64,000 nucleotides of DNA from an uncultured Candidatus Saccharibacteria bacterium (GCA_964615205.1 CAZTQA010000001.1:510-64509), one strand, 5' to 3'. Shown: positions 1,500-24,540, numbered from the stretch's first letter. The notes: generated by a model from the letters alone, not told the origin. A program made the numbers and translations.

Positions 1500-1910
1500 C
1501 TATCTTACAGCTTCCAACTTTCTCTGGGTATTTTGACAGGTACCCATAGAATAGTAGCAGAAAAAATAAGCCGCACAGTCGTCGTCAATAAACTCTATCC
1601 CTAGAGGGCAGACTGGTTCATCTGGATATTCTGGGTCTCTTGGATAATCAGGGCTACAAAAAACATTCGTTTCGTAACTAGCTCCATCTAAAGAACCTGA
1701 ATAATTCTGGTCGGGGTTGCCTTCTTCGCCATAAAGAGCTCTCTCCATGCCTGTGTCAGCAGCAAATAAAGCTCTCATAGAGTTTTCCATTTGTTCAATG
1801 GTTTTGATTTGCCCTACTAAAATAGTGCTCAATCCTAAAACAACTGCCATACCAATGGTAAGAATTATTAAAGCTAAATAAAGAATAACTCCTTTTTCTT
1901 TTTTAAACAT
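1500..1910 (-). CDS. PilX-like minor pilin-associated protein (hypothetical)
   Basis: ORF track gives 1500..1937. A likelier start is the internal MFKKEKGVILYLALIILTIGMAVVLGL, a single N-terminal hydrophobic helix of the PilX_N type. Last gene of the pilin-like operon; Cys-rich C-terminus. Confidence 0.45.
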   Translation of the reverse strand: MFKKEKGVILYLALIILTIGMAVVLGLSTILVGQIKTIEQMENSMRALFAADTGMERALYGEEGNPDQNYSGSLDGASYETNVFCSPDYPRDPEYPDEPVCPLGIEFIDDDCAAYFFCYYSMGTCQNTQRKLEAVR

Positions 1911-1914
1911 AATT

Positions 1915-2496
1915 TCAATATAATTGATATGTATCAATATTTCTCTGGGAAATGGTTGTTTCTAAAGTAATTTTTGGTCCTTCTGGACTGGTTTGAACAA
2001 TTAAAAGCATAGTTACTCTAGATTGATAATTGTCATCCTGATTATGTCCTTGAAGCTTGAATTTGAAATTAGTAATCTCAAGTTTAGACGAAGTTAGGTT
2101 TACGGTTTCTTCATTAGTTGTACCAATGCCTTTTCTATATTTGAGCTGGTTGTTTTCCAAAAAGAATTCTTGGCAATCATCTTCCTCTAAATGGTTAATA
2201 AATTTTATTCCGGTTCCTAAACCTTCATCTCCTCCGATGCGAAAAGCAGACGGGATTTCATAATTTAATCCCAAAGAAGAAAGACATCCCTGGCCTGATT
2301 CTTTTTCTGCCATTCTCAAAGAACGGCTCATTAATTCCATAGAATAACCGCTTTGGTTAAGAAGTTCATAAGAAGATAGAATTCTTTTTTGGGATGTATG
2401 GGTAGTAATAAAAATACTTAATACAGCTCCTATAATAGAAACAGAGACACAAATAGATACCAATATCTCTACTAAAGTGAAACCTGGATTTTTCAT
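1915..2496 (-). CDS. Type IV pilus minor pilin, PilW-like (prepilin-type N-terminal cleavage/methylation domain)
   Basis: ORF track gives 1915..2550. The internal start MKNPG/FTLVEILVSI is the canonical prepilin peptidase motif G|FTLxE followed by a hydrophobic helix. Confidence 0.6.
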   Translation of the reverse strand: MKNPGFTLVEILVSICVSVSIIGAVLSIFITTHTSQKRILSSYELLNQSGYSMELMSRSLRMAEKESGQGCLSSLGLNYEIPSAFRIGGDEGLGTGIKFINHLEEDDCQEFFLENNQLKYRKGIGTTNEETVNLTSSKLEITNFKFKLQGHNQDDNYQSRVTMLLIVQTSPEGPKITLETTISQRNIDTYQLY

Positions 2497-2500
2497 AGAT

Positions 2501-3031
2501 TTATTGCCAATTATATAAATATTCATTAACCGTAGTAGTTTTGATAACATCTTCTCCTGGCCAATAAACTTCTACTTTGACTTCAAGGCTGTCGCCGTTG
2601 GGATCAGGATTTAATGGGTCTATTTCATTAATAATTATTTTTCTCTGGAAGACACTTTCAGGATAATCAGGGGAACTGGAGTAGAAATAAAAACCCTGGT
2701 TATCTGTTTTTAAATATCTGCCAGTGTAAGAGCTTAATTCTAAATCTTGGTATGTATATGTATAATCAGCCTCATATTCTCCAGTAACAGAAAAACCTCG
2801 ATTCCAAGGAATCTCTGGAGAGCCTCTTTGCTCTTCAATAAAATTACTGTCTCTTATGTTGCGTACTATTTCAACTCCTTCCTGCGCTAAAGCCAGGGCA
2901 GAAAGTTTTTTAGAATAATTAGAAGTTATGCGTAGAGTTTTATCTATGGCCGCCAAAGTTGCCAAAAGACCAATTGTGATAATAAAAATGGTGACTAATA
3001 TTTCTAATAAAGTAAAAGCCTTGTTATCCAT
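2501..3031 (-). CDS. Type IV pilus minor pilin, PilV-like
   Basis: MDNKA/FTLLEILVTIFIITIGLL is a prepilin-type N-terminus. Sits in the pilin operon. Confidence 0.6.
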   Translation of the reverse strand: MDNKAFTLLEILVTIFIITIGLLATLAAIDKTLRITSNYSKKLSALALAQEGVEIVRNIRDSNFIEEQRGSPEIPWNRGFSVTGEYEADYTYTYQDLELSSYTGRYLKTDNQGFYFYSSSPDYPESVFQRKIIINEIDPLNPDPNGDSLEVKVEVYWPGEDVIKTTTVNEYLYNWQ

Positions 3032-3059
3032 AAGAATACTTATGTTTTTATTGTTTTTG

Positions 3060-3569
3060 TCATTCTATTTCTACTAAGCCAGCTTTATTAATTCTTACAG
3101 TTTTAGTACCTATGTCTTCAATACCCAAAGTTATTTCTGCTTTATCTGCATCGTTAGTTATATAAATATTAGGATTGGGAGCCCTAAAAATGACAACTAT
3201 GTTTGCTTTGGGAGAAAGTTGAACTATTTTGACATTTGGTTCCAAAATTATATCTCTAATATGTTCAGTTCCTGCCTGATAATGACCACTATTATCAATA
3301 TCTGAAAAAATACTTATTATTCCTTCATTTTTATTACAATATATTCCATATCCTCCTTGAGGATAAAACTCTTCCCCCGGATCGCCTATTGTTTCTCCTG
3401 ATATGGCCATTTGTTCCACTCTCCTTATTTCCTGGGCTAAGTTATTAGCTGATCTTTCTAAAGCATAATTTTTTCCCATTGTTTTATAATTAGTCAAAGT
3501 TATGGCGGTAAGAATGGCAATAATAGCGATAACCACTAAAAGTTCTACTAATGTGAACCCTGTTTTCAT
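3060..3569 (-). CDS. Type IV pilin/pseudopilin, FimT/GspH-like
   Basis: MKTG/FTLVELLVVIAIIAILTAI is a canonical class III signal peptide. First gene of the minus-strand pilin operon. Confidence 0.65.
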   Translation of the reverse strand: MKTGFTLVELLVVIAIIAILTAITLTNYKTMGKNYALERSANNLAQEIRRVEQMAISGETIGDPGEEFYPQGGYGIYCNKNEGIISIFSDIDNSGHYQAGTEHIRDIILEPNVKIVQLSPKANIVVIFRAPNPNIYITNDADKAEITLGIEDIGTKTVRINKAGLVEIE

Positions 3570-3581
3570 TCTTGTATTATA

Positions 3582-3655
3582 GCTTATTTTTTATTTTTTT
3601 GCTAAAATATAAAAAGGGTATTGACTGGCTTATTTTTTATTTTTTTGCTAAAATA
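3582..3655. repeat. Perfect 28-nt direct repeat x2 in the divergent promoter region, each copy carrying an extended -10-like TGCTAAAAT
   Basis: GCTTATTTTTTATTTTTTTGCTAAAATA occurs at about 3582-3609 and 3628-3655 (46-nt period). TGCTAAAAT lies at about 3600-3608 and 3646-3654. The second copy ends 8 nt before the ATG at 3663. Confidence 0.7.
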
Positions 3656-3662
3656 AAAGAAT

Positions 3663-4277
3663 ATGGAGCTAAAAACTTTAAAGATAAAAAAAGGTAAAAT
3701 TGATTTCAAAAATAAATACTTAAAATTATCAATAATTATTGTTGTTTTATGTTCTTTAGTTTTGATCTGGGTTTTGAACAGTCAAGATTTTTTTATTCCA
3801 GAACAGCCTGAAAGCAAGAAATTTTTTGAAAATTGCCAGGCATTATCCTCTTCTTGTCTAAACAATGAATGTCCTTATTATTTTCTCTGCGATGTAATTG
3901 CTTTCACTGATTGTAAGGTTTATGATTGCGATGCTTATTATGGGGTTGTAATCAAAGACAATAATGGCGAAACAATTACTAGAGAACAGTCAAAACCGGA
4001 CGAGAAAAAAATTAAGGAAAAGCTCAATAAGTGCAGGGGAACCGTTGAGGTTTTGGAGAAAGAATTTAAAGATGGAAAATTGAATGTCAATGTTAAAGTG
4101 AACACTGTCGGCGATTGCAAAATAGTATCTTTTATAGCTCAAAGCCAAAATGGACTCAAAACCGCCTTTTTTGAAGAGAAGGATGATTATTATAATTTAA
4201 TTTTTAATTCTCCCCCTTCTGAACCATTTAAAACCATAGCTGTAGGTGAAGGAGGAATAAGCATAAGAGAGAAATGA
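3663..4277 (+). CDS. Membrane-anchored Cys-rich hypothetical protein
   Basis: N-terminal hydrophobic helix (LSIIIVVLCSLVLIWVL). Its stop overlaps the start of the giant gene (ATGA at 4274), so the two are probably co-translated. Confidence 0.5.
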   Translation: MELKTLKIKKGKIDFKNKYLKLSIIIVVLCSLVLIWVLNSQDFFIPEQPESKKFFENCQALSSSCLNNECPYYFLCDVIAFTDCKVYDCDAYYGVVIKDNNGETITREQSKPDEKKIKEKLNKCRGTVEVLEKEFKDGKLNVNVKVNTVGDCKIVSFIAQSQNGLKTAFFEEKDDYYNLIFNSPPSEPFKTIAVGEGGISIREK

Positions 4278-7200
4278 AGTTATCCTTATTTATATTCTTC
4301 TTTGTTTTGATAGGTCTGATTATGCCTCTGCAAGCCTTTGGCGTTGATCCGCCAAAGGTGACTTTAATTTCTCCCAATGATAATTGTGAGATTGAAGAAA
4401 ATGTTTTGGATTTAACATTTAAACAAACTAATTCTGGAGGAGTAGCTTGTTCCTGCAGTTTATATTTGGACGATGTAGTTGTTCAAACCAATTCATCTGT
4501 TCCTCATAACACGCCAACAACATTTTCAGTTTCAGAAATCAAGCCCGGTCAGCATTGGTGGACTGTAAAGTGTACTGACGCTTCCGGCAACACAGGCAGT
4601 CCTTATTATGTAGCTGCTTCATCTAGAGATGGTGGGATTTATCAGAGCAGTACTGGGAATGCGGGAGAGTGGAGCAAACTTGATTTAAGTCCTTATACCT
4701 ACAATAGTACTACAGGATATATAGAACCACAGATTTATTTTATGGATGCGGATCAAAGAGGCCAACTTTTTGCCCATTTGGATTATGAGAACGAATATTA
4801 TCAAGGAGAACCCCAATATTACGGAGGATATTATGGAGATGTAGATCATAGGTCACTTTTTAGAAGACCGGACGAAGGATCGGCTTGGCAGATTTTAGAT
4901 TTGAAAAAAGATGAATATAGCAACTGGAATATTGTATCAATGGCTGAAGACCCAGCCAGTGAAGATGTTTACATTTCTGTTAGCGGTGAAGGAATTTATA
5001 AAAGTGAAGATGGAGGGATTAATTTTGAACTGCTTCCCAACAGTCCTAGCTCTTCCATACTTTATTTAACAGTTGACCCAACCACAAGCGATATTTATGC
5101 TGGAAAGTTTAATTATAGTGGAAGCAGTATTTATAAAAGTGAAGATAGAGGAGATTCTTGGAATCTTTTAGAAGGAAGTCCTACCGTCTATAGCTATACT
5201 TATACTACTGGCAATGGAATGGATGTTGCTCCTAACGGTGATGTTTATTCAACCAATAATCGCGGGGGCGTATGCAAAAGCATAGACAAAGGAGCAACTT
5301 GGAGTTGTAAAAATTATCTTATTGGTGGTACTGATCCCTCTCGAACTGTTAAAGCAATTTCCAATGATATTATTTTTGTCGGAGGAGAACTAGACGGCTA
5401 TAAAATTCAAAGAAGCACAGACGCCGGAGAGAACTGGGAGACAGTTTTTGACTTATCATCTTTAGGCACTAGAAGATATGTAAATGCTATTGAAATGGCT
5501 CCTAATGGCGATATTTATATTGCCATAGATTATTATTCGGTTTCAGGTTACAAAACTGCTATTTATAGAAGTACTGGTAATGGTGATTTAGGCACCTGGA
5601 CCAAGGTTTTGGATTTAGCAAGCGGGTACGTTTTTAGCCAAGTAAGAGTGGTTGATAATGTTAAGAGATCATTTACAGTCTCTTCTTGGTCTCATATTGG
5701 GAGAACAGAAACCCACTCCGGTTTTACTCCAGCCATTGGTAATATTACGGCTGAAAAATGGTCTGCTTCGGTAGGAGGGGGTTTTAATTTTTATAATTCT
5801 CCGCTTACAGCAGATGTTAATGACGATGGAAAGGATGAGATTGTTTTAGTTAGAGATAGGACATTTGTTTTTGACGGAGAAGGAAACAAGCTTTTTGAGG
5901 GGGGGTGTTGTTTTCCCTCATGGCATTGTGCTTCTGAAACTTGTTTATCAGATAATTTAAGACCGTCTCATCCCGATATTGCTGATATTGATAATGATGG
6001 ATTGAAAGAATTAGTTACTAAGGGAGGGGGTGTTGCACTTTTGTTCTCTCGCGAGTTAGATTTGACAGGAAATTTGAGATGGTATTACGATAATCCTTCC
6101 TATTTGCCTGTAGTTAGTGGATCTTTTACTCCAGTTATTTTTGATCTTGGTATAGTTGGTGCAAAAAAGGAGATAATTTTTGCCACAAACGGAGGCCTGA
6201 TTGTTTTTGAAGAAGAGAACGGCTTGCCCTATCTTGGCAGAAACGATGGTCTGATGGGGGTTTGGCAGGATGGTATTGGCTTTAAAACAGATCCATATGG
6301 TTCAGTTCCTGCTGTGGGTGACATAAACAATGACGGCCAAATGGAAATAGTTGTTCAGGGCAGTCCAGACATTTATGCTTTTGATAGATGGGGAAATAAT
6401 CTTTGGCAAACATCTACTGGCTATGACAGAACAGGCTATACTATTTTAGCTGATGTTGTTTCTGGAAATTCAGGATTAGAGGTTATTACACAGTACACAG
6501 ATCATGTCCTCTGCCTTGACGGAGATAATGGCAGTATTTTATGGGATGTAAATATAGGAGCAGGTAGTCCTAACTTAACAGCTTTTCCTTCTCCAGCTGT
6601 GGCTGATATAGATAATGATGGAATAATAGAAGTGATTGCTCCAAAGGACGCCGGTGGATTCTATGTTTTAAACGGAGAAACTGGAGCTATAGAACAAACC
6701 ATAGAAAGCGGATTAATATATGGATCAATTGTTATTGCTGATATTAATGCGGATGGGAGTCTTGATATCATTGCGCCTACTTACGAAGATCTCTATGTTT
6801 TTGATAAAGACGGTAATAAATTGTGGAGCGGCCTTTCCCTCACTGGCAGCGCTATTCCTTCCCTTAATTCCCCGGCCATATCTGATGTAGATGGTGATGG
6901 CTGGGCAGAAGTTATTTTAATTGATACAAGCGGTGTTCTTCATGTTTTGGGCAAAGACAATGATCCGCCTATAGTAACTATTGAAGCCAAAGACAAAAAT
7001 AATGTTTTAATACCAGATGGAGGAATAGTTAAAAGCGAAGATACCGACTTAATAACTATTTCTTCTATTGCTTCTGATTTCTCTGGCATTCAAAACCACA
7101 AAATTAAGTATTGGGTAAACGGTATTCTTCAAGAACCAATAGATGAATGGTCTGAAGGAGGAACCCATTTTATTACTATTGGTCCACTTTTGATAGGAAC

Positions 7201-10200
7201 CAAAATTGAATATCAAGCTACAGCAACTGATTATAGTCTTAATTACAGCGAAACTACTAAAAAATCGTTTTTGGTTGAAGTAGATACTCATCCGCCAAAG
7301 GTGTTTTTGCTTTCTCCAGATGACAATATTGAAACTGAAGAACAAAGCATGCAGGTTTCTTTTAAGCAGATTGACGATGTTTCTTCTTCCTGTTCCTGCA
7401 GCTTATATTTAGACGATGAAGTTATCCAGACCAATTCATCGGTTCCCAATGATACTGTTACTTATTTTACTCTTAGTAATATGAAGCCAGGAACCAATTA
7501 TTGGACAGTTAAATGTACGGATGAAGCTGGAAATACGGGCAGTCCTTATTATATAAGCCTTGTAGCTAGCCATAATAATCTTTATCAAAGCGATGATGAT
7601 GGACAAACCTGGACAGGGTTGGATGTTTTGAAATATTTCAATTCTCCTATTACGGGAGAAGATTCCATAGGAGGTGTTTCTTTTCTAGATTCCACTTCAG
7701 ATGGAAAAATGTTTATGAGTTTAGGGTATGATAATCATTATGACTGTGACGGAACATATAAAAGCGTATGGCAGGTGCATCAAGCTACTTTTAGAAAAAA
7801 TAGTGACTCATCCATTTTAAAAATGATTAAGGGTGATTGTATAAATGGAAGTTCTAATTTGATCAGTTCTTTAGCTGAAGCTTCTAACGGAGATTTATAT
7901 GCGGTCAATGGTGGTATTTATAAAAGTACAGACAAGGGAGGTATTTGGGATCAAATATCTGGTCCATCTGGCTGTAAATCTGTAGCTGTGAGTGATAATG
8001 GATATATTTTTGCTACCGGCAGCAATGGCGTTTACAGAAGCATAGATAATGGTGAATCCTTTGAACTGCTTTCCGGAAGTCCTAAAATAACTATTACGCC
8101 CACAGCGCATCTTATTATTTCGGTTAATAATGATATTTACGTTGCCAGTGGGAAATATGTTTATAAAAGTATTAACAATGGAGATAACTGGACAATTGTT
8201 TTTACTTCTCCTTATGCAAGCCCTGGCAAAGAAGTTGCCTCTTTATTTGCTTTTAATCAAAACACTATTTTTGCTGGCATTAAACAAGACGATGAACTTT
8301 TAGGGGCAATTTATGTAAGCTATAATGCTGGAGTTGACTGGCAGATATCTTTACAACAACAGCAGATTTATAATGAAACAGATTCTATGGAAGGATGGAC
8401 GCAGTCTATTGATAAATCTCCACAAGGAGATATTTATGCAGCTATCTACGGTTATTGTTATTCTACTGAGCCAAAAGCATTAGTATATAGGAGTATGGAT
8501 TTGGGAGCAACTTGGCAATTATCTTTTTCAAGCCCAAAAAATACCAGTAATAATCCAAGCTTTTCAAGTGTAGTGGAGAATATTCGCCGTTCCATTATTA
8601 TTCCTAGTTGGCCTGAGGTCGGAAGAGAAAAAGATCATAATGCTTACACTTTTCTGGAAGGAGGAATAAGTTTTGTTGAAAAATACTGGAATCAATCCAT
8701 TAGTTCCCCTGTTGATTTAGATTGGGCTGGATTGGTAACGGCTGATATAGATGGCAATGGAAAAGATGAAATTTTTTCAATCAATGAAACAGCTCAAGCC
8801 TTTGATGGACAAGGAAACTTATTATGGAGCAGAACCTGCGGAGTAGGCTGGTCTTCTCCTCGTCCATGTTTTGAGCCAAGCGGATATGGGCAAATTTCAG
8901 CAGTGGGGGATGTTGATAATGACGGTGTTATGGAAATAGTTTTTAATGGCTATGACAATGAGATAATTTGCCGTAATGCAGCCACTGGTACTTTAAAATG
9001 GTTTACCTCTAGTCTCGATATCTATGAAGATGATGTAATAACACCGGTTATTGCTGATATTAATAACGATGGCTTAAATGAAATTATAATTCACGGAAAA
9101 AATCTTTATGTATTAGAAGGTTCCACAGGCGAAGTTTTATGGTCTAAAAGTATTTTGAACCGAGGCACAGTTCCTGCATTGGCTGATTTAAATCAGGACG
9201 GACAAATGGACATTGTGGTTGAAAATGCTAGTGATAATTATTTATATGCTTTTGATGGTCAGGAAAATCCATTATGGCAAGTTCAAGTTCAACCAAATTA
9301 CAATGATGTAACCGGCTATATTTCAATAGCTGATGTAGATAATGACAATAAGCCGGAAGTCATTGAAACTTGTTGGGGGGAAATTTTTGTCTTTAATGGA
9401 GAAGACGGTAGCAAACTATGGAGCAAACCATATGCTGAATTTCCTGGACAGCAAGCAGTTAACGATTATGGTTCCCCAGCTATAGGAGATGTAAGAACTG
9501 ATATTGCGGGAATGGAAATAGCCTTGGGATTAGCTGATCCTGGTGGTCATCCAGCCCAGGGATTATTCCTGTTAAATGGGAAGACAGGAGAGATTATTTG
9601 GAGTGATGCCTCTATTGGCAGTGTCTATGGCTCGCCAGCCATAGCTGATATTAACAGTGATGGAGAATTGGAAATTATTATTCAGACAGATATGGTTTAT
9701 TGTTTTAATTCCAGCGGAGAAATTATTTGGAGTTATCCGGCTGGCGGAAGGTCAAATGTAGCCATAGCAGATGTAATGGATACAGAAGGAGCTGAAGTGA
9801 TTGTTTTTTCTGGAGGAGAAATTTATGTTTTAGGAGAGGACAATGTCCCGCCCCAGCTTGTTATTGAAAGAGTGCCTGCGGGCGATGTTTACAATGATGA
9901 TACAGTAATTTTTACTTCTATAGCTTTAGATACATCAGGTATTTATTATCATGCTGTTCAATATCGTATAAACGAAGGAGAATGGGCAACTATTTTCGAA
10001 TGTTATGATTCAAACGGCGATAACAAATGCGACAGTGATTTCAGAGATGTTAATCCTTTAGTAGTATCAGTTGATCCCTATACTTATGCGGTTGATGATT
10101 ATATTGAATATCGTTCTACGGCTGTAGATAATAGTTTTCCTCCTAATACTGGCTATAGTGATATAGGTTCTTTTACTGTGCTTTTAGGTAATGCTCCGCC

Positions 10201-10921
10201 ATATATTCAATCCCAGGAAGTTAATTATCAAGAATACTGCGGATCAGGTCTTTGTGATGGAGCAGTAGGATTTAAGTGGATCTATAAAGATGAAGATGGG
10301 GACAATGAAATTAGATATGATTTCAAAATAAACGATGTTGATGATGTGGATGATCTCGATCCAGAAGTTGATAAGACTTTTAAGGGATTAAGTTATCCAG
10401 ATGGAACAGAAAATAATCAGCAAGTAACAGTAGCTAAGTCTGCAGGAGAGAACGAAATTACCTACAACACCACTTATTATTGGTGGGCAAAGGTATATGA
10501 TGAGTGGGGTGATTCCGGATGGATTAGCGGTAGTTCCTTTGCTACAGCTGCTCACGCTTATCCTGATCCTGATTTTACTTTGGAACCTGAAGCCCCGGCA
10601 GTAGATGTATTTGCTCAGTTATGCTCAGTGGAAGCACCGGGCCTTTGTGATTCAGATATTAGCAAATGCTATGACATTAATAATGAGGAAGTTTCTTGTT
10701 CCGGAGCCGAATTTACATGGGACATTAGTGGCTGCAATGGCATCTTTGTGGGAGGAACAGATGAGCATTCTGAAAATCCCAAAGTCAAACTTTATTCATC
10801 AGGTCAAATAAAGCTTTGGATTACAGACCAAGACGGTTTTGGCCCCTGTACTATTTCAAAAGATATTGAACCTAAACTTCCTTATCCCGGGTGGAAGGAA
10901 ATTCCTCCCCAGAAGGAATAA
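4274..10921 (+). CDS. Giant secreted surface protein (2215 aa) with duplicated Ig-like + BNR/Asp-box + FG-GAP/VCBS-like modules and a PKD/FN3-like C-terminus
   Basis: Signal peptide MKLSLFIFFFVLIGLIMPLQAFG. Many Asp-box-like SxDxGxxW motifs (SEDRGDSW, SIDKGATW, STDAGENW, SDDDGQTW, SMDLGATW). Many FG-GAP-like Ca-binding loops (DVNDDGKDEIV, DIDNDGLKELV, DINNDGQMEIV, DINADGSLDII, DVDNDGVMEIV). Confidence 0.85.
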   Translation: MKLSLFIFFFVLIGLIMPLQAFGVDPPKVTLISPNDNCEIEENVLDLTFKQTNSGGVACSCSLYLDDVVVQTNSSVPHNTPTTFSVSEIKPGQHWWTVKCTDASGNTGSPYYVAASSRDGGIYQSSTGNAGEWSKLDLSPYTYNSTTGYIEPQIYFMDADQRGQLFAHLDYENEYYQGEPQYYGGYYGDVDHRSLFRRPDEGSAWQILDLKKDEYSNWNIVSMAEDPASEDVYISVSGEGIYKSEDGGINFELLPNSPSSSILYLTVDPTTSDIYAGKFNYSGSSIYKSEDRGDSWNLLEGSPTVYSYTYTTGNGMDVAPNGDVYSTNNRGGVCKSIDKGATWSCKNYLIGGTDPSRTVKAISNDIIFVGGELDGYKIQRSTDAGENWETVFDLSSLGTRRYVNAIEMAPNGDIYIAIDYYSVSGYKTAIYRSTGNGDLGTWTKVLDLASGYVFSQVRVVDNVKRSFTVSSWSHIGRTETHSGFTPAIGNITAEKWSASVGGGFNFYNSPLTADVNDDGKDEIVLVRDRTFVFDGEGNKLFEGGCCFPSWHCASETCLSDNLRPSHPDIADIDNDGLKELVTKGGGVALLFSRELDLTGNLRWYYDNPSYLPVVSGSFTPVIFDLGIVGAKKEIIFATNGGLIVFEEENGLPYLGRNDGLMGVWQDGIGFKTDPYGSVPAVGDINNDGQMEIVVQGSPDIYAFDRWGNNLWQTSTGYDRTGYTILADVVSGNSGLEVITQYTDHVLCLDGDNGSILWDVNIGAGSPNLTAFPSPAVADIDNDGIIEVIAPKDAGGFYVLNGETGAIEQTIESGLIYGSIVIADINADGSLDIIAPTYEDLYVFDKDGNKLWSGLSLTGSAIPSLNSPAISDVDGDGWAEVILIDTSGVLHVLGKDNDPPIVTIEAKDKNNVLIPDGGIVKSEDTDLITISSIASDFSGIQNHKIKYWVNGILQEPIDEWSEGGTHFITIGPLLIGTKIEYQATATDYSLNYSETTKKSFLVEVDTHPPKVFLLSPDDNIETEEQSMQVSFKQIDDVSSSCSCSLYLDDEVIQTNSSVPNDTVTYFTLSNMKPGTNYWTVKCTDEAGNTGSPYYISLVASHNNLYQSDDDGQTWTGLDVLKYFNSPITGEDSIGGVSFLDSTSDGKMFMSLGYDNHYDCDGTYKSVWQVHQATFRKNSDSSILKMIKGDCINGSSNLISSLAEASNGDLYAVNGGIYKSTDKGGIWDQISGPSGCKSVAVSDNGYIFATGSNGVYRSIDNGESFELLSGSPKITITPTAHLIISVNNDIYVASGKYVYKSINNGDNWTIVFTSPYASPGKEVASLFAFNQNTIFAGIKQDDELLGAIYVSYNAGVDWQISLQQQQIYNETDSMEGWTQSIDKSPQGDIYAAIYGYCYSTEPKALVYRSMDLGATWQLSFSSPKNTSNNPSFSSVVENIRRSIIIPSWPEVGREKDHNAYTFLEGGISFVEKYWNQSISSPVDLDWAGLVTADIDGNGKDEIFSINETAQAFDGQGNLLWSRTCGVGWSSPRPCFEPSGYGQISAVGDVDNDGVMEIVFNGYDNEIICRNAATGTLKWFTSSLDIYEDDVITPVIADINNDGLNEIIIHGKNLYVLEGSTGEVLWSKSILNRGTVPALADLNQDGQMDIVVENASDNYLYAFDGQENPLWQVQVQPNYNDVTGYISIADVDNDNKPEVIETCWGEIFVFNGEDGSKLWSKPYAEFPGQQAVNDYGSPAIGDVRTDIAGMEIALGLADPGGHPAQGLFLLNGKTGEIIWSDASIGSVYGSPAIADINSDGELEIIIQTDMVYCFNSSGEIIWSYPAGGRSNVAIADVMDTEGAEVIVFSGGEIYVLGEDNVPPQLVIERVPAGDVYNDDTVIFTSIALDTSGIYYHAVQYRINEGEWATIFECYDSNGDNKCDSDFRDVNPLVVSVDPYTYAVDDYIEYRSTAVDNSFPPNTGYSDIGSFTVLLGNAPPYIQSQEVNYQEYCGSGLCDGAVGFKWIYKDEDGDNEIRYDFKINDVDDVDDLDPEVDKTFKGLSYPDGTENNQQVTVAKSAGENEITYNTTYYWWAKVYDEWGDSGWISGSSFATAAHAYPDPDFTLEPEAPAVDVFAQLCSVEAPGLCDSDISKCYDINNEEVSCSGAEFTWDISGCNGIFVGGTDEHSENPKVKLYSSGQIKLWITDQDGFGPCTISKDIEPKLPYPGWKEIPPQKE

Positions 10922-12578: not shown

Positions 12579-12851
12579 ATGGATAAAAAGAATTTAGTTG
12601 AAACAATTAGTAAAAAAATAGGAATTTCTAAAAGCGACAGCAACGAAATAGTGAATTTGATTTTAGATGAAATAACTAAATCTCTTTCTCAAGGAGAAGA
12701 GGTTGTTTTTACTGGCTTTGGTAAATTTTGTATTTCTCAAAGAAAAGAAAGAAATGGAATCAATCCCCAAACCAAAGAAAAAATTAAAATCCCAGCTTCT
12801 AAATCGCCCAAATTTAAACCAGGTAAGATTCTGAAAGAAGCTGTTAAATAA
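12579..12851 (+). CDS. hup: DNA-binding protein HU
   Basis: 90 aa. MDKKNLVETISKK...GFGKF...RKERNGINPQTKEKIKIPASKSPKFKPGK matches the HU/IHF signature. Confidence 0.9.
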   Translation: MDKKNLVETISKKIGISKSDSNEIVNLILDEITKSLSQGEEVVFTGFGKFCISQRKERNGINPQTKEKIKIPASKSPKFKPGKILKEAVK

Positions 12852-12863
12852 AAAATTCTACTA

Positions 12864-12895
12864 AAAAATCCCGCACCTCGGTGCGGGATTTTTTA
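12864..12895 (+). terminator. Rho-independent terminator after hup
   Basis: AAAAATCCCGCAC-CTCG-GTGCGGGATTTTT is a perfect GC-containing stem followed by a T-run. Confidence 0.8.
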
Positions 12896-12905
12896 GTTGG
12901 AATAT

Positions 12906-12958
12906 ACAGGACTGTGGATAAAGTATCTATGGACTTTCTATTTTCTTTCTATTATAAT
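12906..12958 (+). promoter_or_regulatory. Candidate promoter/operator region of the lexA-methyltransferase gene
   Basis: TGGACT (12930-12935), 17-nt spacer, TATAAT (12953-12958). CTTTCTATT direct repeat at 12934-12942 and 12945-12953 (11-nt period) overlaps the spacer and -10. Small palindromes ACAGGACTGT (12906-12915) and GATAAAGTATC lie upstream. Confidence 0.4.
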
Positions 12959-12990
12959 TAAGTATAGAGAATATAAAAATAAATCAAGTC

Positions 12991-14313
12991 ATGATTACTA
13001 AAAAGCAAAAACAAGTTTTAGATTTCATAACTTTATATCGCAAGAAACGAGGATATTCTCCGTCTCTTGAAGAAATACAAAAAAAATTCAGACTTGCTTC
13101 TGTTTCTACTGCTCATTTCCATGTTAAAAAATTACAAGAATTGGGACTTTTAGAAAAAAAACACAACAAACCAAGGTCAATTAATATCTACGAGAACGAA
13201 AAAATGGTTAATATTCCTCTCCTGGGCTTAATAGCTGCTGGGCAGCCGATTGAAGCAATACAAGATAAAGAAACAATTGCTTTTCCCCAAAACAAACTTC
13301 CTCGCTTTGGAGAATTTTATGCTTTACGAGTAGCAGGAAATAGTATGATAGAGGAGAACATCAAGGATGGTGATATTATTTTAGTAAAAGAACAACAAAC
13401 AGTTGAAAATGGACAAAAAGTTGTTGCGCTGATCGATAATTATAAAGCAACCTTAAAAACGTTTTATAAAGAAAGAGATAAAATTCGTTTACAACCAGCC
13501 AATAAAAATTATGAACCAATTATTATAAAGAGCGGTGAACGAGAGATTGTTATTCAAGGACTTGTTATTGATGTAATAAAAAACAATGAAGAATTGCAAG
13601 CAACAGAATTATTATCGCAAAAGGAAATAAAGAGATATAATAACCTACCACTAAATAAAGTTATCTGTGGAGATGCTATAGAAGAATTGAAAAAACTACC
13701 AAATAAATCTATTGATTTGATATTAACAGATCCTCCTTACGGATTAAATAAAAAGGGCATTAGTAATGATACTGATTTAAGCTTATTTTATTCGTCTTTG
13801 CCGGAAAGTTACCGAGTTTTAAAGGATAACTCTTTCTTTATAACCTTTTTTAGTACAAAATTTTTACCACAAATTTTCAGAAGTAATCCTTTTGAATATT
13901 TCTGGAATTTTGTTCTTTATTGTCCGAATGGAAGCGTCTCTTCCCCTATAGGATATACAAAATATATGTCTTGTATGGTCTTCAAAAAGGGTAATCCTAA
14001 GATGATAAAAAGAGGGAAAGATATTTTTGTTGATACTCCAGGTAGAATGGTGGAACCTGACGAAGGGTTTATTAATCATCCAACGCCAAAACCAAAAACC
14101 TTTATAAAAGATATTTTGTTAATGTTCTCTAGAAACGGAGATATCGTTTTAGATCCTTTTATAGGTAGCGGGAGTACAGCAATTGCTTGTAAGCAAATTG
14201 GAAGAAATTTCATTGGATTTGAGATTGATGTAAATTACTATAAATTGGCTAAAGAAAGATTAAAGAAAATTGAAGGAAAATCTAAGACCTATGACCTTAA
14301 ACTTAATTTTTAA
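12991..14313 (+). CDS. Fusion protein: full-length LexA-like repressor (wHTH + S24 autopeptidase) fused to a beta-class N6A/N4C DNA methyltransferase
   Basis: aa 1-200 are colinear with LexA: cleavage site LIAA83|G84QP, Ser118 in AGNSM, Lys156 in ATLKTF, end GLVIDVIKN. aa 225-440 are a methyltransferase: DPPY at aa 247-250, HPTPKP, LDPFIGSGST, FIGFEID. The motif order IV then I defines the beta class. Confidence 0.85.
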   Translation: MITKKQKQVLDFITLYRKKRGYSPSLEEIQKKFRLASVSTAHFHVKKLQELGLLEKKHNKPRSINIYENEKMVNIPLLGLIAAGQPIEAIQDKETIAFPQNKLPRFGEFYALRVAGNSMIEENIKDGDIILVKEQQTVENGQKVVALIDNYKATLKTFYKERDKIRLQPANKNYEPIIIKSGEREIVIQGLVIDVIKNNEELQATELLSQKEIKRYNNLPLNKVICGDAIEELKKLPNKSIDLILTDPPYGLNKKGISNDTDLSLFYSSLPESYRVLKDNSFFITFFSTKFLPQIFRSNPFEYFWNFVLYCPNGSVSSPIGYTKYMSCMVFKKGNPKMIKRGKDIFVDTPGRMVEPDEGFINHPTPKPKTFIKDILLMFSRNGDIVLDPFIGSGSTAIACKQIGRNFIGFEIDVNYYKLAKERLKKIEGKSKTYDLKLNF

Positions 14314-15190
14314 TAAGGTTCTTTAGAACTGTTTTCATATCCCAAGCATGCTCTTTTGAGGCAACGATAAAGCTTTCTGCAAGTCCTATCAGATCATCTT
14401 TACTAATTGGTAAAAAGATTACTTCATTACTTTTTGCTGTTCGTCCAATAATTGAACGGTTGTCTTTGTCAAAAAGATTGTTTGCTTTTGAACAGAAATA
14501 TATCATACTTTGATAACCAACTGCTTTTTGTTTGTGTTGTAAAATAATTTCAACAAGAGTATTGCTACTTATTCTATTCATAAATAAAGGATTTTTTTCT
14601 TCAAATAATTCAAACTTGCCCAAAATTTTTTTATGAGTCGTTGTTCTGATAATTTTATACTGTTTTTCAATATCTAATTCATTTTTATTATTAAAATCTA
14701 TCAATTGTTCAATTTCCTGTTTGTTTATTAATTTATCTTTTAATGCGATTTTGAACAAATCAGATAATTCATAACCGACATAAGTATTTCCATTTTTGTG
14801 CTCTTTTATAACTATTATTTCATTATTTCTTTTAAAAATTTCAAGTATTTCATTCTTAAAATCTTTTCTACTTTTGATGTTCGTTTCTAGAATAAATTTT
14901 TTAATATCGCTAAGGATGTTTATATTTTTATAATTTAAAGATAAATTTTCTAAAATGTTCTCGCGATCTTTTGGCGTTTTAGCTGTTCGATAGTTTTTCC
15001 AGATTGTATCAATCGGCAAGAAATAAGAAATTTGCCATTCAACATAATCATTTTCAGAAAATACATTTTTCTTTACAGAAATTGGTTCGCCAAAATTATC
15101 TTTCCTTCGTTTAACTCTAATTTTGCTAGTTGCACCAGTTATTGGGATAGAACAAATAATTTTACTATTTTTTATAAAAAGCATTGACAT
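14303..15190 (-). CDS. Hypothetical protein; candidate cognate restriction endonuclease
   Basis: 295-aa ORF convergent with the methyltransferase, 3' ends overlapping by 11 nt. Visibly very AT-rich. I could find no nuclease motif, so the call rests on context only. Confidence 0.35.
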   Translation of the reverse strand: MSMLFIKNSKIICSIPITGATSKIRVKRRKDNFGEPISVKKNVFSENDYVEWQISYFLPIDTIWKNYRTAKTPKDRENILENLSLNYKNINILSDIKKFILETNIKSRKDFKNEILEIFKRNNEIIVIKEHKNGNTYVGYELSDLFKIALKDKLINKQEIEQLIDFNNKNELDIEKQYKIIRTTTHKKILGKFELFEEKNPLFMNRISSNTLVEIILQHKQKAVGYQSMIYFCSKANNLFDKDNRSIIGRTAKSNEVIFLPISKDDLIGLAESFIVASKEHAWDMKTVLKNLIKN

Positions 15191-15226
15191 ATTATAATAA
15201 CAAATGACTTTTATTTTTTAAATTGA

Positions 15227-15297
15227 AGCGAGTGAAGGGAATCGAACCCTCATGACCAGGTTGGAAACCTGAGGCTCTGCCATTGAGCTACACTCGC
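15227..15297 (-). tRNA. tRNA-Gly (anticodon UCC)
   Basis: Reverse complement is GCGAGTGTAGCTCAATGGCAGAGCCTCAGGTTTCCAACCTGGTCATGAGGGTTCGATTCCCTTCACTCGCT. Acceptor GCGAGTG/CACTCGC, anticodon stem TCAGG/CCTGG with loop TTTCCAA, T-loop TTCGATT. CCA is not encoded. Confidence 0.85.
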
Positions 15298-15299
15298 CT

Positions 15300-15370
15300 T
15301 CGGGGTACCCAGATTTGAACTGGGACTAAATCCTCCCAAAGGACTCGTGCTGCCGTTACACTATACCCCG
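15300..15370 (-). tRNA. tRNA-Pro (anticodon UGG)
   Basis: Reverse complement is CGGGGTATAGTGTAACGGCAGCACGAGTCCTTTGGGAGGATTTAGTCCCAGTTCAAATCTGGGTACCCCGA. Acceptor CGGGGTA/TACCCCG, anticodon stem AGTCC/GGATT with loop TTTGGGA, T-arm CCCAG-TTCAAAT-CTGGG. Confidence 0.85.
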
Positions 15371-15450
15371 AACTCATTCATATTTTAATAAAACTTTTGC
15401 TTTTAGTCAATCAATGTTATCATAAATGTATGTATTAACAATTTAATTTA

Positions 15451-20909: not shown

Positions 20910-22040
20910 ATGAATAGAATTTATCAAACTATTATTATCGGTGCAGGACCTGCAGGGTTGATAGCGGGTAGACATTTAAAAGATTCTTTAATTTTAGATC
21001 AAAAACAAGAAATTGGTAAACCGGTACAATGTGGAGAAGGAATTAGCAGAGATGCTCTTAAAATACATAATATAGAACCAGATTCTTCCTGGATTTCTTG
21101 TGACATTCATAGGGTTGAAAGAATAATGCCGAACGGTAAAAGAATAGGTAAATTTCATAAGGAAGCAATAGGATATATTCTAGATAGAACTGCTTTCGAA
21201 AAATTCTTAGCGAGTACTGTCAAGGCTGAGATTAAATTAAAAAGCAAAGTTGTTGATTTAAATAAAGAAAACAATATTTGGTGTGTTAAAACGCAAAATG
21301 GAGAAATATTTAAATCTAAATATATTATTGGAGCCGATGGACCAAATTCTATAGTACGAGAAAAGGTTTTTAAAGAGAGAATAAAGATCCTCCCAGCAGT
21401 TGAATATTTATTAGAATTAGAGAAAGAAATAAAAGTAGATACCTTGGAAATTTATTTAAATAATGAAAAATATCCTCAGGGATATGCTTGGATTTTTCCT
21501 AAATCAAGAAATACGGCTAATATAGGTATTGGTGGACAAGGGGATCTTTTAGAAAAATTTAGGGAATTTTTAGAAGAGGAGGTGAGAATTAAATATCAAA
21601 ATTATAAAATTCTAGAAAATAGAAGTGGAGTTGTTCCTTTTGCTAAACCCTCAACAATTATTAAAGATGGAGTATTATTAGTCGGTGATGCCGCTGGTTT
21701 TACAAATAGCGTTTTTAAGGCAGGAATAAGTAGAGCGATGTGGTCTGCAAGGATTTGCAGTCAACTTATTTTAGATAATGATATAAGTTCTCATAAGCAC
21801 AAAACAAGAGTAATTTTGTTTACCGGTTCTAAACTAGATAGAGCAGGAAGTATATTGTATGCTTTTAGCAATGAATCACTCAATGAATTAGGAGGTTTTT
21901 TAGAGAATAAGAATGCTTCTTATTATAAAAATATATTAGTAATAATGAAAATGTTATTTAGTCATTCTTTAAGAAAGGATATTTTGAAAATGTTTGAATT
22001 TATTTCAATCTGGAAAAAATACAAAAAATATAGTTGGTAA
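20910..22040 (+). CDS. Geranylgeranyl reductase family FAD-dependent oxidoreductase
   Basis: IIIGAGPAGLIAG dinucleotide fold, CGEGIS, IIGADGPNSIVR, GYAWIFPK...ANIGIGG. These are signatures of the archaeal/bacterial GGR family. Confidence 0.75.
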   Translation: MNRIYQTIIIGAGPAGLIAGRHLKDSLILDQKQEIGKPVQCGEGISRDALKIHNIEPDSSWISCDIHRVERIMPNGKRIGKFHKEAIGYILDRTAFEKFLASTVKAEIKLKSKVVDLNKENNIWCVKTQNGEIFKSKYIIGADGPNSIVREKVFKERIKILPAVEYLLELEKEIKVDTLEIYLNNEKYPQGYAWIFPKSRNTANIGIGGQGDLLEKFREFLEEEVRIKYQNYKILENRSGVVPFAKPSTIIKDGVLLVGDAAGFTNSVFKAGISRAMWSARICSQLILDNDISSHKHKTRVILFTGSKLDRAGSILYAFSNESLNELGGFLENKNASYYKNILVIMKMLFSHSLRKDILKMFEFISIWKKYKKYSW

Positions 22041-22912
22041 TAATTAAAATAATCATGAATTTTTCACAAGCCTTGAAATTAATCTTTAATGAATTTCTTT
22101 ACGGTGGACATTTAATCTCACTAGGAGCTGTTGGCATAGTTTTTTCGTCGGCTATTTTATTAGAAATAAAAATAGATTTGGATTTTTTGATAATTGTATA
22201 TTTATTTAGTTATAATTCTATTTTATATAATCGGTATAGAGAATTTAGAATTGATTATTTAACTAATCCAGAGAGGACTAAAAATTTAAGAAAATATTTT
22301 AAATATATTTCTTTAATTCTTTGTTTTTCCATACTGATTACTACAGGTATATTTATTTTTAATAATAAATTTTTGGCTTTATTCTTTTTGATTCTATTAT
22401 CTTTATTGACTTTCTTATATACAGAGTATTTTAAAAATATAACTAAAAATATATTTATTTTTAAGAATATTTATTTCTCTTTTGTCACGGGTTTATTATT
22501 AATATTATTGGTCCTTTATTATTCTTATCCAATTTTGAATTTCATTTTTTTTATAATTTTCATTTTTGTTTTTCTAAGAATGTTTATCAATACAGTGTTT
22601 CTTGATATCAAAGATGTTAAAGGTGATAATAAAATAAGGTTAAAGACAATTCCAATTTTATTTGGCGAAACCAAAACATTAAAAATTTTACAATTATTAA
22701 GTATGATATCAATATTACCAATACTTATTGGGGTTTATCTTGGTTTTTTACATCTTTTTTCTTTAGTTCTTATTTTCATAGTTCCTTATTCTTTTTACTA
22801 TTTTTTTGAGTCTAAAAAGAGAAAAAATTTTTATTTAGTAAATTATTTTTTAGCTGATTTAGAGTTTATTTTATGGCCAATTTTACTTTTATTGTCTAAA
22901 AATTTAATATGA
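22034..22912 (+). CDS. UbiA-superfamily membrane prenyltransferase
   Basis: About 8 hydrophobic helices. Second Asp-rich motif DIKDVKGD...LKTIPILFG. The first motif is the variant N-RYR-E-FRI-D (NxxxExxxD). Overlaps the GGR stop. Confidence 0.65.
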   Translation: MVIIKIIMNFSQALKLIFNEFLYGGHLISLGAVGIVFSSAILLEIKIDLDFLIIVYLFSYNSILYNRYREFRIDYLTNPERTKNLRKYFKYISLILCFSILITTGIFIFNNKFLALFFLILLSLLTFLYTEYFKNITKNIFIFKNIYFSFVTGLLLILLVLYYSYPILNFIFFIIFIFVFLRMFINTVFLDIKDVKGDNKIRLKTIPILFGETKTLKILQLLSMISILPILIGVYLGFLHLFSLVLIFIVPYSFYYFFESKKRKNFYLVNYFLADLEFILWPILLLLSKNLI

Positions 22913-24540
22913 TCGAATTAATTAATTTCTTATTCATAAATAAATTTATTATTATTTTAGTAAGTAGTTTTGGAATCTATCTGGCTTTTTGGGTTTATTA
23001 TGCTGATCGAAAAGCGAAAACGAATCAATTATTCACTTTGATGATGCTTTTTGCTCTTTCTTGGATTATTCTTTGTTATTTCAGTGGGATATTAATTAAT
23101 AATTTAGGTTTATCATTATTTTTGGCAAGACTAGCTTACGGGATAGCTATTCTTTTTTTCATACCCTTTTATTTTTTCTCTTTATGGTTTATCAAGAAAA
23201 AAGAAGAGGTTCGGCTTTTAAAGATTTTTATTCCGATAGGAAGTTTAACTATCTTTTTTCTATCTGTTTTTACTGATTTTATGGCAGAAAAAATGATTCC
23301 TATAAATATAATAGGAATTTCTATGGGTGTAGCTCCCGTTATAGGTGTTGGAAAATTTATTTATTTTGGTTTTGTATTCTTTGTCGCCGTATTAGTTGTT
23401 GTTCGTCTTATTAAGGCATATTTTAAAGTATCGAAAATTGAGAAGTTAAAATTACAATATTTCTTAATCGGCATTATAATTTTTGTAATTGCTAATCTTG
23501 TTTTTAATGTTATTTTTGCTTCGTGGGTGGGGGATGCGAGATATTATCAACTTGGGAATTATTCGGCCATATTTTTGTTGGCGTTTACGGCGTATGCGAT
23601 TGTGAAAAGGGAATTGTTCGGGATTAAGGTTATTGTAACCTCCATATTTGTAGTTTTGATTGCGATTCTGCTTGCCTTAGATATGCTGTTGTTTACAGAA
23701 GTTTTCTTAATTAAAGCACTGAAAACTGCGGCTTTATTGATATTCCTTGTCTTTGGCAGAATCTTGATAAACAGCGTTGCAAATGAAGTTAAAAGAAGAG
23801 AGGAGTTGGAGAAATTAAGCCGAGCTAAGTCAGAGTTTATTTCTATGGCTTCCCACCAATTGAGAACCCCTTTGACTGCTATTAAAGGATATAGCTCTTT
23901 GATGATGGAAGGCACTTACGATAAATCAAAAGCAAAACAAAAGAAAGTTTTAAAGAATATTTTTATTTCTACAGAAAGATTGATTAAAATCGTAAATGAC
24001 TTGTTGAATCTTTCCAGAATTGAATTAGGTAGATTAGAGATAGAAAAAGAGCCGGTAAGGATTGAAGAATTGGCAGAGAGCGTTTTTAAAGAAATGAAGT
24101 CGCGCGCCAAAGAAAAAGAAATAAAACTTTTATATGAGAAGCCGAAGCAAGAGTTACCGGAACTAAATCTTGATTCTTTGAAAATAAGGCAGGCCATATT
24201 TAATTTAGTTGACAATGCCATAAAGTATACAGAAGATGGAGAAATAAAGATTATTATTGAAAAAATAAAAGATAAGATTAGGATTACCATTAGCGACACA
24301 GGCAGGGGTTTTAGCAGCGAAGAGGCCAAAAGATTATTTGAGCTTTTTATTAGAGGAGAAGCGGGCATAGATACTTTTGTGGAAGGAACAGGGATTGGTC
24401 TCAATGTTGCCAGAAAATTTGTTGAGCTTCACGGGGGCAATATTAGAGCAGAATCAGAAGGAAAAAATAAGGGAGCTAAATTTTACATTGAACTTCCCAT
24501 TGTTTCCAAAGAAGCAGAAGAATTTATTAAAAGAATATAA
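22909..24540 (+). CDS. Sensor histidine kinase with polytopic N-terminal membrane domain
   Basis: About 7 TM helices, then H-box SEFISMASHQLRTPLT, N-box NLVDNAIKYT, DTGRGF, GTGIGLNVAR. Confidence 0.8.
   Translation: MIELINFLFINKFIIILVSSFGIYLAFWVYYADRKAKTNQLFTLMMLFALSWIILCYFSGILINNLGLSLFLARLAYGIAILFFIPFYFFSLWFIKKKEEVRLLKIFIPIGSLTIFFLSVFTDFMAEKMIPINIIGISMGVAPVIGVGKFIYFGFVFFVAVLVVVRLIKAYFKVSKIEKLKLQYFLIGIIIFVIANLVFNVIFASWVGDARYYQLGNYSAIFLLAFTAYAIVKRELFGIKVIVTSIFVVLIAILLALDMLLFTEVFLIKALKTAALLIFLVFGRILINSVANEVKRREELEKLSRAKSEFISMASHQLRTPLTAIKGYSSLMMEGTYDKSKAKQKKVLKNIFISTERLIKIVNDLLNLSRIELGRLEIEKEPVRIEELAESVFKEMKSRAKEKEIKLLYEKPKQELPELNLDSLKIRQAIFNLVDNAIKYTEDGEIKIIIEKIKDKIRITISDTGRGFSSEEAKRLFELFIRGEAGIDTFVEGTGIGLNVARKFVELHGGNIRAESEGKNKGAKFYIELPIVSKEAEEFIKRI

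Follow-up and report, generated by a model that had tools for sequence, protein, structure and literature searches.

We analysed a 64,000-nt stretch of DNA from an uncultured Candidatus Saccharibacteria bacterium (GCA_964615205.1 CAZTQA010000001.1:510-64509; hereafter the window), focusing on a 295-aa open reading frame (ORF) that lies between a DNA methyltransferase gene and a pair of tRNA genes. By sequence, fold and active-site residues this ORF, here called R, is a clear member of the R.PabI family of restriction DNA glycosylases. Its convergent partner (M, or LexA::M) encodes a LexA repressor fused to the methyltransferase. We consider it likely that the two genes form a compact PabI-kind Type II restriction-modification (R-M) module that is variably held or acquired, is linked to the SOS response through LexA::M, and was trimmed from a larger system. 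PabI-family restriction enzymes are rare and disable foreign DNA via base excision instead of a backbone cut. To our knowledge, every restriction enzyme outside this group of restriction glycosylases acts by cutting the backbone, and the glycosylases characterised to date come solely from Pyrococcus and Campylobacter/Helicobacter.

The R gene occupies positions 14303..15190 on the minus strand, counted from its first ATG in the ORF list; public gene callers use the second ATG, which gives 293 aa. The C-terminal 110 residues match Pfam family PF09522 (RE_R_Pab1) with 49.2 bits against a cut-off of 25, and a phmmer search of PDB sequences returned R.PabI (2dvy, E 4e-28), spanning residues 13-223 of its 226. 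In this alignment, R residues 6-57 correspond to R.PabI 13-69 and residues 139-293 to R.PabI 75-223. A profile of the family alignment (A1) linked R to R.PabI and R.CcoLI at E 1e-55, and the PADLOC model REase_II for Type II restriction enzymes matched R at E 6e-31; searches of R against NCBIfam and PHROGs gave nothing useful. An AlphaFold2 (AF2) model of R was built from 45 homologues, with a predicted local distance difference test score (pLDDT) of 92.7 and a predicted template-modelling score (pTM) of 0.89. In a Foldseek comparison with the PDB, chains of R.PabI and R.CcoLI supplied every match at E <= 1e-8; their target-normalised template-modelling (TM) scores were 0.80-0.87 and no other entry came under E 0.1, so that the predicted structure has the HALFPIPE fold. 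The original prediction of a restriction enzyme at this locus is therefore upheld, although not with the PD-(D/E)XK, HNH or GIY-YIG fold that had been expected. A confident non-nuclease fold had been named as grounds for giving the assignment up; HALFPIPE, a DNA-glycosylase fold, is formally of that kind, but the assigned function stands, as R.PabI is itself a restriction enzyme. It has been shown to be a bona fide methyl-sensitive one, blocked by N6-methyladenine (m6A) in GTm6AC (PMC10273834; PMC7806768).

The catalytic residues Y68, H211 and D214 of R.PabI correspond to Y56, H281 and D284 of R, and its lysine K154 to K220; all four are invariant or nearly so in the 45-sequence alignment. The ten base-reading residues of R.CcoLI and R.PabI, which recognise GTAC, are likewise all kept (K23, R25, E51, Q53, I54, Q221, Q227, M229, Y231 and F274) and are invariant or near-invariant across the family alignment. 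The pairwise ratio of nonsynonymous to synonymous substitution rates (dN/dS) of R against an 81%-identical homologue is 0.07, which indicates purifying selection. Given the conserved catalytic and base-reading residues and this low ratio, R is most likely an active adenine glycosylase specific for GTAC.

A protein search returned 81 relatives of R, most of which are 287-308 aa long and have an insertion in common. The named long-form relatives come from metagenome-assembled genomes of Patescibacteria and Nanoarchaeota; short-form relatives have 221-257 aa and 26-36% identity. As judged from these comparisons, R belongs to a "long" subfamily of Patescibacteria and DPANN archaea that is marked by an insertion of about 80 aa. 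The insertion (aa 58-138; 14777..15019, minus strand; delimited with the phmmer alignment to R.PabI and alignment A1) begins directly after the catalytic Tyr56 and has no counterpart in R.PabI or R.CcoLI. In R.CcoLI a short beta-sheet insertion at that same point places Lys71 for apurinic/apyrimidinic (AP) lyase activity (PMC7806768). Modelled alone, the insertion of R folds into four helices and a beta-hairpin (pLDDT 79). No significant structural neighbour was found for it in the PDB (best E 1.4); the weak matches (E > 1) are mostly winged-helix domains, at most a hint. No relatives of R were found among phage records and only distant homologues on Campylobacter conjugative plasmids, and there is thus no evidence for a phage or plasmid vehicle. 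The two-gene arrangement of R and M recurs in all four contigs listed (seven carry the protein), which come from ENA, JGI and Logan samples.

The gene that meets R is a 440-aa ORF at 12991..14313 on the plus strand, and positions 14303-14313 are common to both, an 11-nt 3' overlap as first described. Residues 1-200 (12991..13590) form a LexA head with a winged helix-turn-helix (HTH) domain (PF01726, E 1e-13) and an S24 autopeptidase domain (PF00717, E 6e-29). The head scores 176.3 bits against a cut-off of 110.95 for the lexA equivalog TIGR00498, over aa 2-199. In an alignment of 24 fusions the cleavage site A83-G84 (13237-13242) and the dyad residue Ser118 (13342-13344) are invariant, and the other dyad residue, Lys156 (13456-13458), is nearly so; the fused LexA is complete and apparently cleavage-competent. 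A linker and an N6-adenine-type methyltransferase follow (aa 201-440; 13591..14313; PF01555, E 2e-29, aa 241-422). Motif IV DPPY (aa 247; 13729-13740) stands ahead of motif I FIGSGS (aa 390; 14158-14175), which is the beta-class order and not that of the gamma-class M.PabI type. Read-through has added the final 14 codons (14272-14313): relatives stop after ...KKF, and the window reads on through KKIEGKSKTYDLKLNF to its stop. Methyltransferases of the same beta-class tail family occur beside R.PabI homologues at essentially all loci whose flanks are long enough, and at four loci (L005, L135, L138 and L144) the beta-class enzyme is the sole methyltransferase. It probably protects the host from R.

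The 120 best database matches to the fusion all unite the three Pfam domains. A scan of species-representative genomes for the LexA head revealed about 40 Patescibacteria loci with a LexA::methyltransferase gene; the fusions have 435-654 aa and methyltransferase motifs of the subtypes DPPY, SPPY, DPPF and NPPY. At 34 of these loci an ORF converges on LexA::M and either overlaps its 3' end or adjoins it, and where tested these ORFs are unrelated restriction enzymes (TaqI-type at L013; PADLOC REase_II families at L016, L020, L028, L030 and L043). Heads that are 80-83% identical to the LexA of the window carry tails of only 21-32% identity, and tails that are 76-81% identical to its methyltransferase carry heads of only 44-62% identity. 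On these identities the fusion is a mosaic. No description of LexA-methyltransferase fusions was found in the searchable literature; an earlier one may still exist. At locus L026 (6834-8357) the LexA::M frame is split into ORFs of 132 and 333 aa, probably a pseudogene, and the convergent 229-aa ORF is intact.

It was considered whether the LexA head is a fixed core gene whose tails are swapped. This was rejected: the corresponding site is empty in two relatives (L145 and L148, described below) and locus L022 has modules in tandem, so that the whole LexA::M-R unit is variable. L022, an Azambacteria contig, carries two different modules of LexA::M and a convergent ORF (1763-4072 and 5751-8116) that lie 1.7 kb apart. 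The LexA head thus travels with R-M modules and may exceed one copy per genome.

Upstream of LexA::M lies the intrinsic terminator of hup (12860..12897, plus strand), in which a perfect inverted repeat of 18 nt precedes a run of T; this terminator forms the left edge of the variable block described below. A DnaA-box-like element, TGTGGATAAA (12913..12922, plus strand), lies upstream of the M promoter; TGTGGATAA(C) is a perfect DnaA-box-like sequence, and the window has a single copy of TGTGGATAA. The promoter itself (12930..12958, plus strand) consists of a -35 element TGGACT, a 17-nt spacer and a -10 element TATAAT, matches the consensus at 10 of 12 positions, and its architecture is kept in related loci. 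A TTTC-N7-TTTC direct repeat, CTTTCTATTTTCTTTCTAT (12934..12952, plus strand), occupies the promoter spacer and is a candidate LexA operator. We surveyed the upstream regions of 41 non-redundant fusion genes against control segments. An element like TGTGGATAAC, which equals the DnaA box, was present with at most one mismatch upstream of 37 genes (2.6% of controls) and sits 0-15 nt upstream of the promoter or its -35 element (loci L005-L063 and the window). The direct-repeat consensus ACTTTCTATTTATTTTCTAT was found in the spacer of 33 of the 41 promoters, compared with 8.5% of controls. A position weight matrix (PWM) built without the window gave its operator site 29.4 of a maximum of 31.5. Scanning the whole 64 kb with this matrix revealed no second operator, the next best score (19.0) being at the level of shuffled sequence, and across 30 loci sites were found at M promoters only and none upstream of the convergent R genes. 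A search for a palindromic (inverted-repeat) operator upstream of M gave only the hup terminator, and this candidate was dropped in favour of the conserved direct repeat. LexA proteins that read direct repeats, including those of Patescibacteria, are mentioned in PMC7739468, which cites Sanchez-Osuna et al. (2017). We propose that the LexA head autoregulates M, and that RecA-stimulated cleavage would raise the level of M and not that of R; by analogy with LexA, an operator conserved in the M promoter only would suggest SOS-coupled methylation.

The genes for tRNA-Gly(UCC) (anticodon tcc; 15225-15298) and tRNA-Pro(UGG) (anticodon tgg; 15299-15371) were placed by ARAGORN on the minus strand and are thus oriented like R. 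Together they make up the right-hand border of the island at 15225..15371, one nucleotide beyond the end at 15370 first given. The two tRNA genes abut directly and tRNA-Gly is 34 nt from the first ATG of R, correcting the 2 and 36 nt estimated earlier. The 34-nt spacer (15191..15224, minus strand) contains a TATAAT at 15196-15191 that abuts the first ATG, as had been noticed, with the second ATG 6 nt further; relatives have TCCTAAT at this position. The spacer may also be a remnant of a controller (C) gene, comprising about its last 11 codons. A promoter-like site of the tRNA operon (15382..15410, minus strand) has TTGACT, a 17-nt spacer and TAAAAT, matching the consensus at 10 of 12 positions, and no terminator was detected between tRNA-Gly and R. 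R is probably driven by read-through from this promoter; as an alternative, inferred from the motif, the TATAAT at its start may serve. The original suggestion that R is co-transcribed with the tRNAs, or has a leaderless mRNA, is plausible. In many loci (L019, L020, L021, L024, L039 and others) the gap between the end of the -10 element and the ATG that opens the fusion gene is just 6-7 nt. Such short distances imply that leaderless mRNAs are common for LexA::M genes, which would fit a leaderless R.

The metagenome contigs reveal a larger system from which the module could be derived. In the canonical long-form layout, a C gene (HTH_3) and R are read in one direction and meet, on the opposite strand, a 376-aa gamma-class methyltransferase gene (gammaM), a 212-aa beta-class gene (betaM) and a separate HTH_17 gene; at L093 a LexA::betaM fusion replaces the last two. 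Short-form loci have betaM, R and gammaM in this order on one strand. Both methyltransferases are visible at 37 of 63 long-form loci. Two-methyltransferase systems of this form include L079 (4739-7829), L093 (4778-8308) and about 35 other metagenome loci; their gammaM matches no Pfam family. The gammaM gene of L079 lies at 5878-7008 and has no counterpart in the window. At the DNA level, window positions 15219-14299 align with L079 4972-5892 (80% identity) and 14281-13679 with L079 7000-7605 (74% identity). Between the two aligned segments the window has 17 nt (14282..14298) where L079 and L093 have the 1.1-kb gammaM, a probable deletion scar. In the alignment it corresponds to the initial 12 nt of gammaM and to the last codons overlapping R; the synthetic-deletion alignment that fits best retains 16 nt past the stop of R together with the same 12 nt of gammaM. 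The betaM stop is lost, hence the 14 extra codons. At the other end, the L079 alignment extends upstream beyond the R start by 29 nt and there covers the 3' end of the L079 C gene; in the window tRNA-Gly follows. These junctions are suggestive of a deletion of gammaM and C from the window copy. The 11-nt overlap of R and M was then probably inherited from an overlap of R and gammaM. Since beta-only systems exist at L005, L135, L138 and L144, one methyltransferase can evidently suffice.

Syntenic relatives were located via RNase Y. In the Parcubacteria genome GCA_030630045.1 (L145), whose RNase Y is 79% identical to that of the window, the order RNase Y, HU, tRNA-Gly, tRNA-Pro, HisKA, response regulator, T2SSE and TrpS is the same. 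By blastn, window 11006-12851 matches L145 8981-10808 and window 15227-16993 matches L145 10858-12649. The homology stops at 12851, and in L145 the distance from the end of hup and its terminator to tRNA-Gly is just 49 nt, compared with 2375 nt in the window. The block 12852..15226, between hup and the 3' end of tRNA-Gly, is a true indel. The site is also empty in L148 (71% identical). In L013 (Minisyncoccales; 79% identical) it is filled with a different R-M cassette, which has a TaqI-type R, a C gene and three extra genes; its promoter and LexA head are 74% identical to the window in DNA and its methyltransferase tail is unrelated. The tRNA-Gly/tRNA-Pro pair is present in the same orientation in all three relatives. 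Elsewhere the modules occupy unrelated genomic contexts. A tRNA lies within 500 nt past the R start at 5 of 25 loci, compared with 5% expected (p 0.007). The island-like R-M module of the original prediction is thus supported by its presence/absence polymorphism beside a tRNA 3' end. Its distribution is that of an island, but it does not qualify as a classical integrative element, given the absence of an integrase and of a significant tRNA-end repeat, both of which had been noted from the start. A reasonable guess is that cassettes move by homologous recombination via the flanks or the conserved LexA head.

Base composition was compared along the window (34.5% GC). The whole block has 28.6% GC and the R ORF 25.7%, in the bottom 2% of 888-nt windows. 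R is therefore as AT-rich as had been claimed, but it is not unique in this. Within the window, GC drops furthest (to about 20%) at 21850-23100, in a gene for a polytopic membrane protein (292 aa, 22034-22912). Low GC was accordingly rejected as a sufficient sign of foreign origin: since a native gene is more AT-rich still, low GC by itself marks foreign DNA poorly in this genome.

The following sequence of events would account for these observations. The module, a trimmed derivative of the canonical system from which C and gammaM were apparently deleted, was probably acquired, or is variably held, in the interval that runs from the hup terminator to the tRNA-Gly 3' end. R would bind 5'-GTAC-3' as a homodimeric "half-pipe", flip out an unmethylated adenine and hydrolyse its N-glycosidic bond; the abasic sites on both strands would then be broken by a lysine-dependent AP-lyase activity of R itself or by host AP endonucleases. 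The host would be shielded by the convergent beta-class m6A methyltransferase with its complete LexA. The LexA head may repress its own promoter via the TTTC-N7-TTTC operator until DNA damage leads to self-cleavage at A83-G84 and more methyltransferase is made. R, which lacks such an operator, would now be transcribed with the tRNA-Pro/tRNA-Gly operon or from the new -10 element next to its start. Overall, damage would feed back on methylation and self-restriction would be curbed.

Several observations weigh against this account. The operator is tied to LexA only by its position, its conservation and analogy. The deletion scars are short and AT-rich, suggestive but not conclusive. The cognate methyltransferase of characterised PabI is of the gamma class, and both gammaM and the C activator are missing here, so that expression of R might be low, or R might be tolerated only as a weak enzyme. 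Nonsynonymous change in R on the branch leading to the window (0.07) is about twice that on the L079 branch (0.03). GTAC occurs 54 times in the window where a Markov model expects 69 (z -2.1), and is not distinctively avoided; CTAG, ACGT, CATG, TGCA and GATC are each depleted more strongly. As a test of specificity, GTAC avoidance was set aside as uninformative either way, since several other palindromes are more depleted. Finally, no integrase explains the movement of the block, which holds two ORFs only, and the search at the left border for an att-like repeat of the tRNA end found only AT-rich matches of 13-18 nt at chance level.

It is possible, although we doubt it, that the LexA head is a controller-like autorepressor of M only, with no link to RecA or SOS. 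Autorepressors with an N-terminal HTH are well established on Type II methyltransferases such as SsoII and EcoRII, the close relatives of the window module have a separate 63-aa HTH_17 gene in the position of the LexA head, and no second candidate operator was found in the 64 kb. The head, however, scores as a LexA equivalog, and a whole S24 domain with its invariant Ala-Gly site and Ser/Lys dyad is kept in at least 24 divergent fusions. Such retention is hard to square with cleavage being irrelevant.

That R is an orphaned, silenced or weakened remnant, and that the module acts only as a LexA-linked methyltransferase, appears unlikely. The reading draws on the apparent scars, on the presence of C upstream of R in every well-covered canonical locus and of gammaM in most, on the faster nonsynonymous change, and on the lack of specific GTAC avoidance. 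Against these, the ORF is intact with all invariant, catalytic and base-reading residues, the overall dN/dS is low, and beta-only systems occur in independent lineages (L005, L135, L138 and L144). A consensus TATAAT has also arisen at the R start in place of the TCCTAAT of relatives, and read-through from the tRNA operon meets no terminator.

An ancestral block that was deleted in the relatives, and not acquired, is improbable. The lack of an integrase and of a tRNA-derived direct repeat would agree with it, and the identity of the promoter and LexA head between window and L013 (74%) equals that of the flanking core genes, which fits vertical descent of this part. On the other hand, the equally close L145 and the more distant L148 are both empty, which makes the empty state the parsimonious ancestral one. 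The methyltransferase tail and R differ wholly between window and L013, the fusion is a mosaic, related modules stand in unrelated contexts and in tandem in L022, and the GC content is below that of the flanks. We give hardly any credence to R being a DNA-repair enzyme at a LexA-controlled repair locus, even though a DNA glycosylase adjoins a lexA homologue here: R converges on and co-varies with a DNA methyltransferase, other LexA::M loci have Type II endonucleases (TaqI-type and PADLOC REase_II families) at that position, the GTAC-reading residues are conserved, and no LexA-type operator precedes R.

Apart from the SOS-linked PabI module favoured here, the LexA::M loci allow a broader suggestion, which we put forward tentatively as rather less probable than not. 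In Patescibacteria, LexA may have been captured by the methyltransferases of many unrelated Type II systems as their N-terminal module, making them damage-responsive in a built-in loop against autoimmunity. Once RecA had been activated by self-restriction or by damage of any other kind, self-cleavage of LexA::M would lift the repression of its promoter, so that methylation would increase at a constant level of R. The PabI module, whose lesions would be abasic sites, would be one instance of this loop, and the mobile heads may, in such tiny genomes, double as the SOS repressor of the cell or interfere with it.

Some neighbouring features were recorded in addition. Three minus-strand genes (266, 131 and 112 aa) lie between hup and LexA::M in L013 (6107-7636) and may be further cargo of the hot spot, and a ThsB-TIR gene adjoins the LexA::M module of L008. 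Window positions 4274-10921 encode a giant 2215-aa FG-GAP/beta-propeller protein of surface type whose length is highly variable among syntenic relatives; it is absent from L013, and its counterparts in L145 and L146 have 589 and 1500 aa respectively.

The findings extend the restriction-glycosylase family to Patescibacteria and DPANN archaea and define a long form with an extra domain at the site where R.CcoLI gained its AP-lyase function. A PabI-type glycosylase is itself known, if rare; what is new is the extra domain, the beta-class LexA-fused methyltransferase and the loss of the controller and of the second methyltransferase. Long-form systems normally comprise two methyltransferases and a controller, and the window has a minimal derivative that apparently survives on one methyltransferase. 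The more surprising element is the LexA::M architecture with its conserved operator, which lies just outside the 14303-15370 interval singled out originally but belongs to the same module. This architecture is widespread and, if the proposed coupling is true, ties epigenetic self-marking to SOS; the loop would then indicate how streamlined bacteria with few means of repair might escape autoimmunity from their R-M systems. In addition, the locus illustrates the exchange of R-M cassettes at a tRNA-flanked hot spot without an integrase.

One of the closest known systems is PabI of Pyrococcus abyssi. It shares with the window the HALFPIPE fold, the Tyr/His/Asp triad, the lysine equivalent to K154, the GTAC-reading residues and a tail-to-tail arrangement of R and M, as in the archaeal lineage. 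The window R differs by the insertion of about 80 aa after the catalytic Tyr, and its host is a mesophilic, AT-rich member of the Patescibacteria whereas P. abyssi is a hyperthermophile. Characterised PabI systems pair with gamma-class methyltransferases (PMC4615327); M.PabI is of this class, whereas the window methyltransferase is of the beta class, with DPPY before FxGxG, and fused to LexA. R.CcoLI and R.HpyAXII of Campylobacter and Helicobacter are mesophilic as well and have an insertion at the same point beside the catalytic Tyr, but theirs is a short beta-sheet of about 15 aa and that of the window a helical domain of about 80 aa. In those systems, moreover, M precedes R on the same strand, the methyltransferase is gamma-class and the identity is about 29%. 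In the canonical long-form systems (such as L079 and L093), R has the same insertion and 60-82% identity, the betaM tail is 76-81% identical, and R has the same 11-nt 3' overlap. They have an upstream C gene (HTH_3) and a 376-aa gammaM between R and betaM, and in most of them a separate HTH_17 gene takes the place of the fused LexA; the window lacks all of these genes.

In regulation, the module resembles Type II methyltransferases with an N-terminal autoregulatory HTH (the SsoII, EcoRII and MspI type) and systems controlled by C proteins. As in the SsoII type, a DNA-binding domain on or next to M probably represses its own promoter through an operator that overlaps it; in the window, by contrast, the regulator is an entire LexA with a self-cleaving S24 domain, and we know of no damage input to methyltransferases of the SsoII, EcoRII and MspI type or to C-protein systems. 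The head shares with the LexA/SOS repressor the full architecture, an equivalog-level score, the cleavage residues and a putative direct-repeat operator at its own promoter, but it is extended by a methyltransferase, paired with a restriction gene and part of a variable, sometimes duplicated module (L022), and is not a fixed core gene. DpnII-type systems have two adenine methyltransferases, and Type I systems show damage-induced restriction alleviation. The canonical relatives are like DpnII in having two adenine methyltransferases of different classes for each restriction enzyme, of which the window retains one. By analogy with Type I alleviation, the proposed rise of methylation upon damage would serve the same purpose, via more M and not via proteolysis of R.

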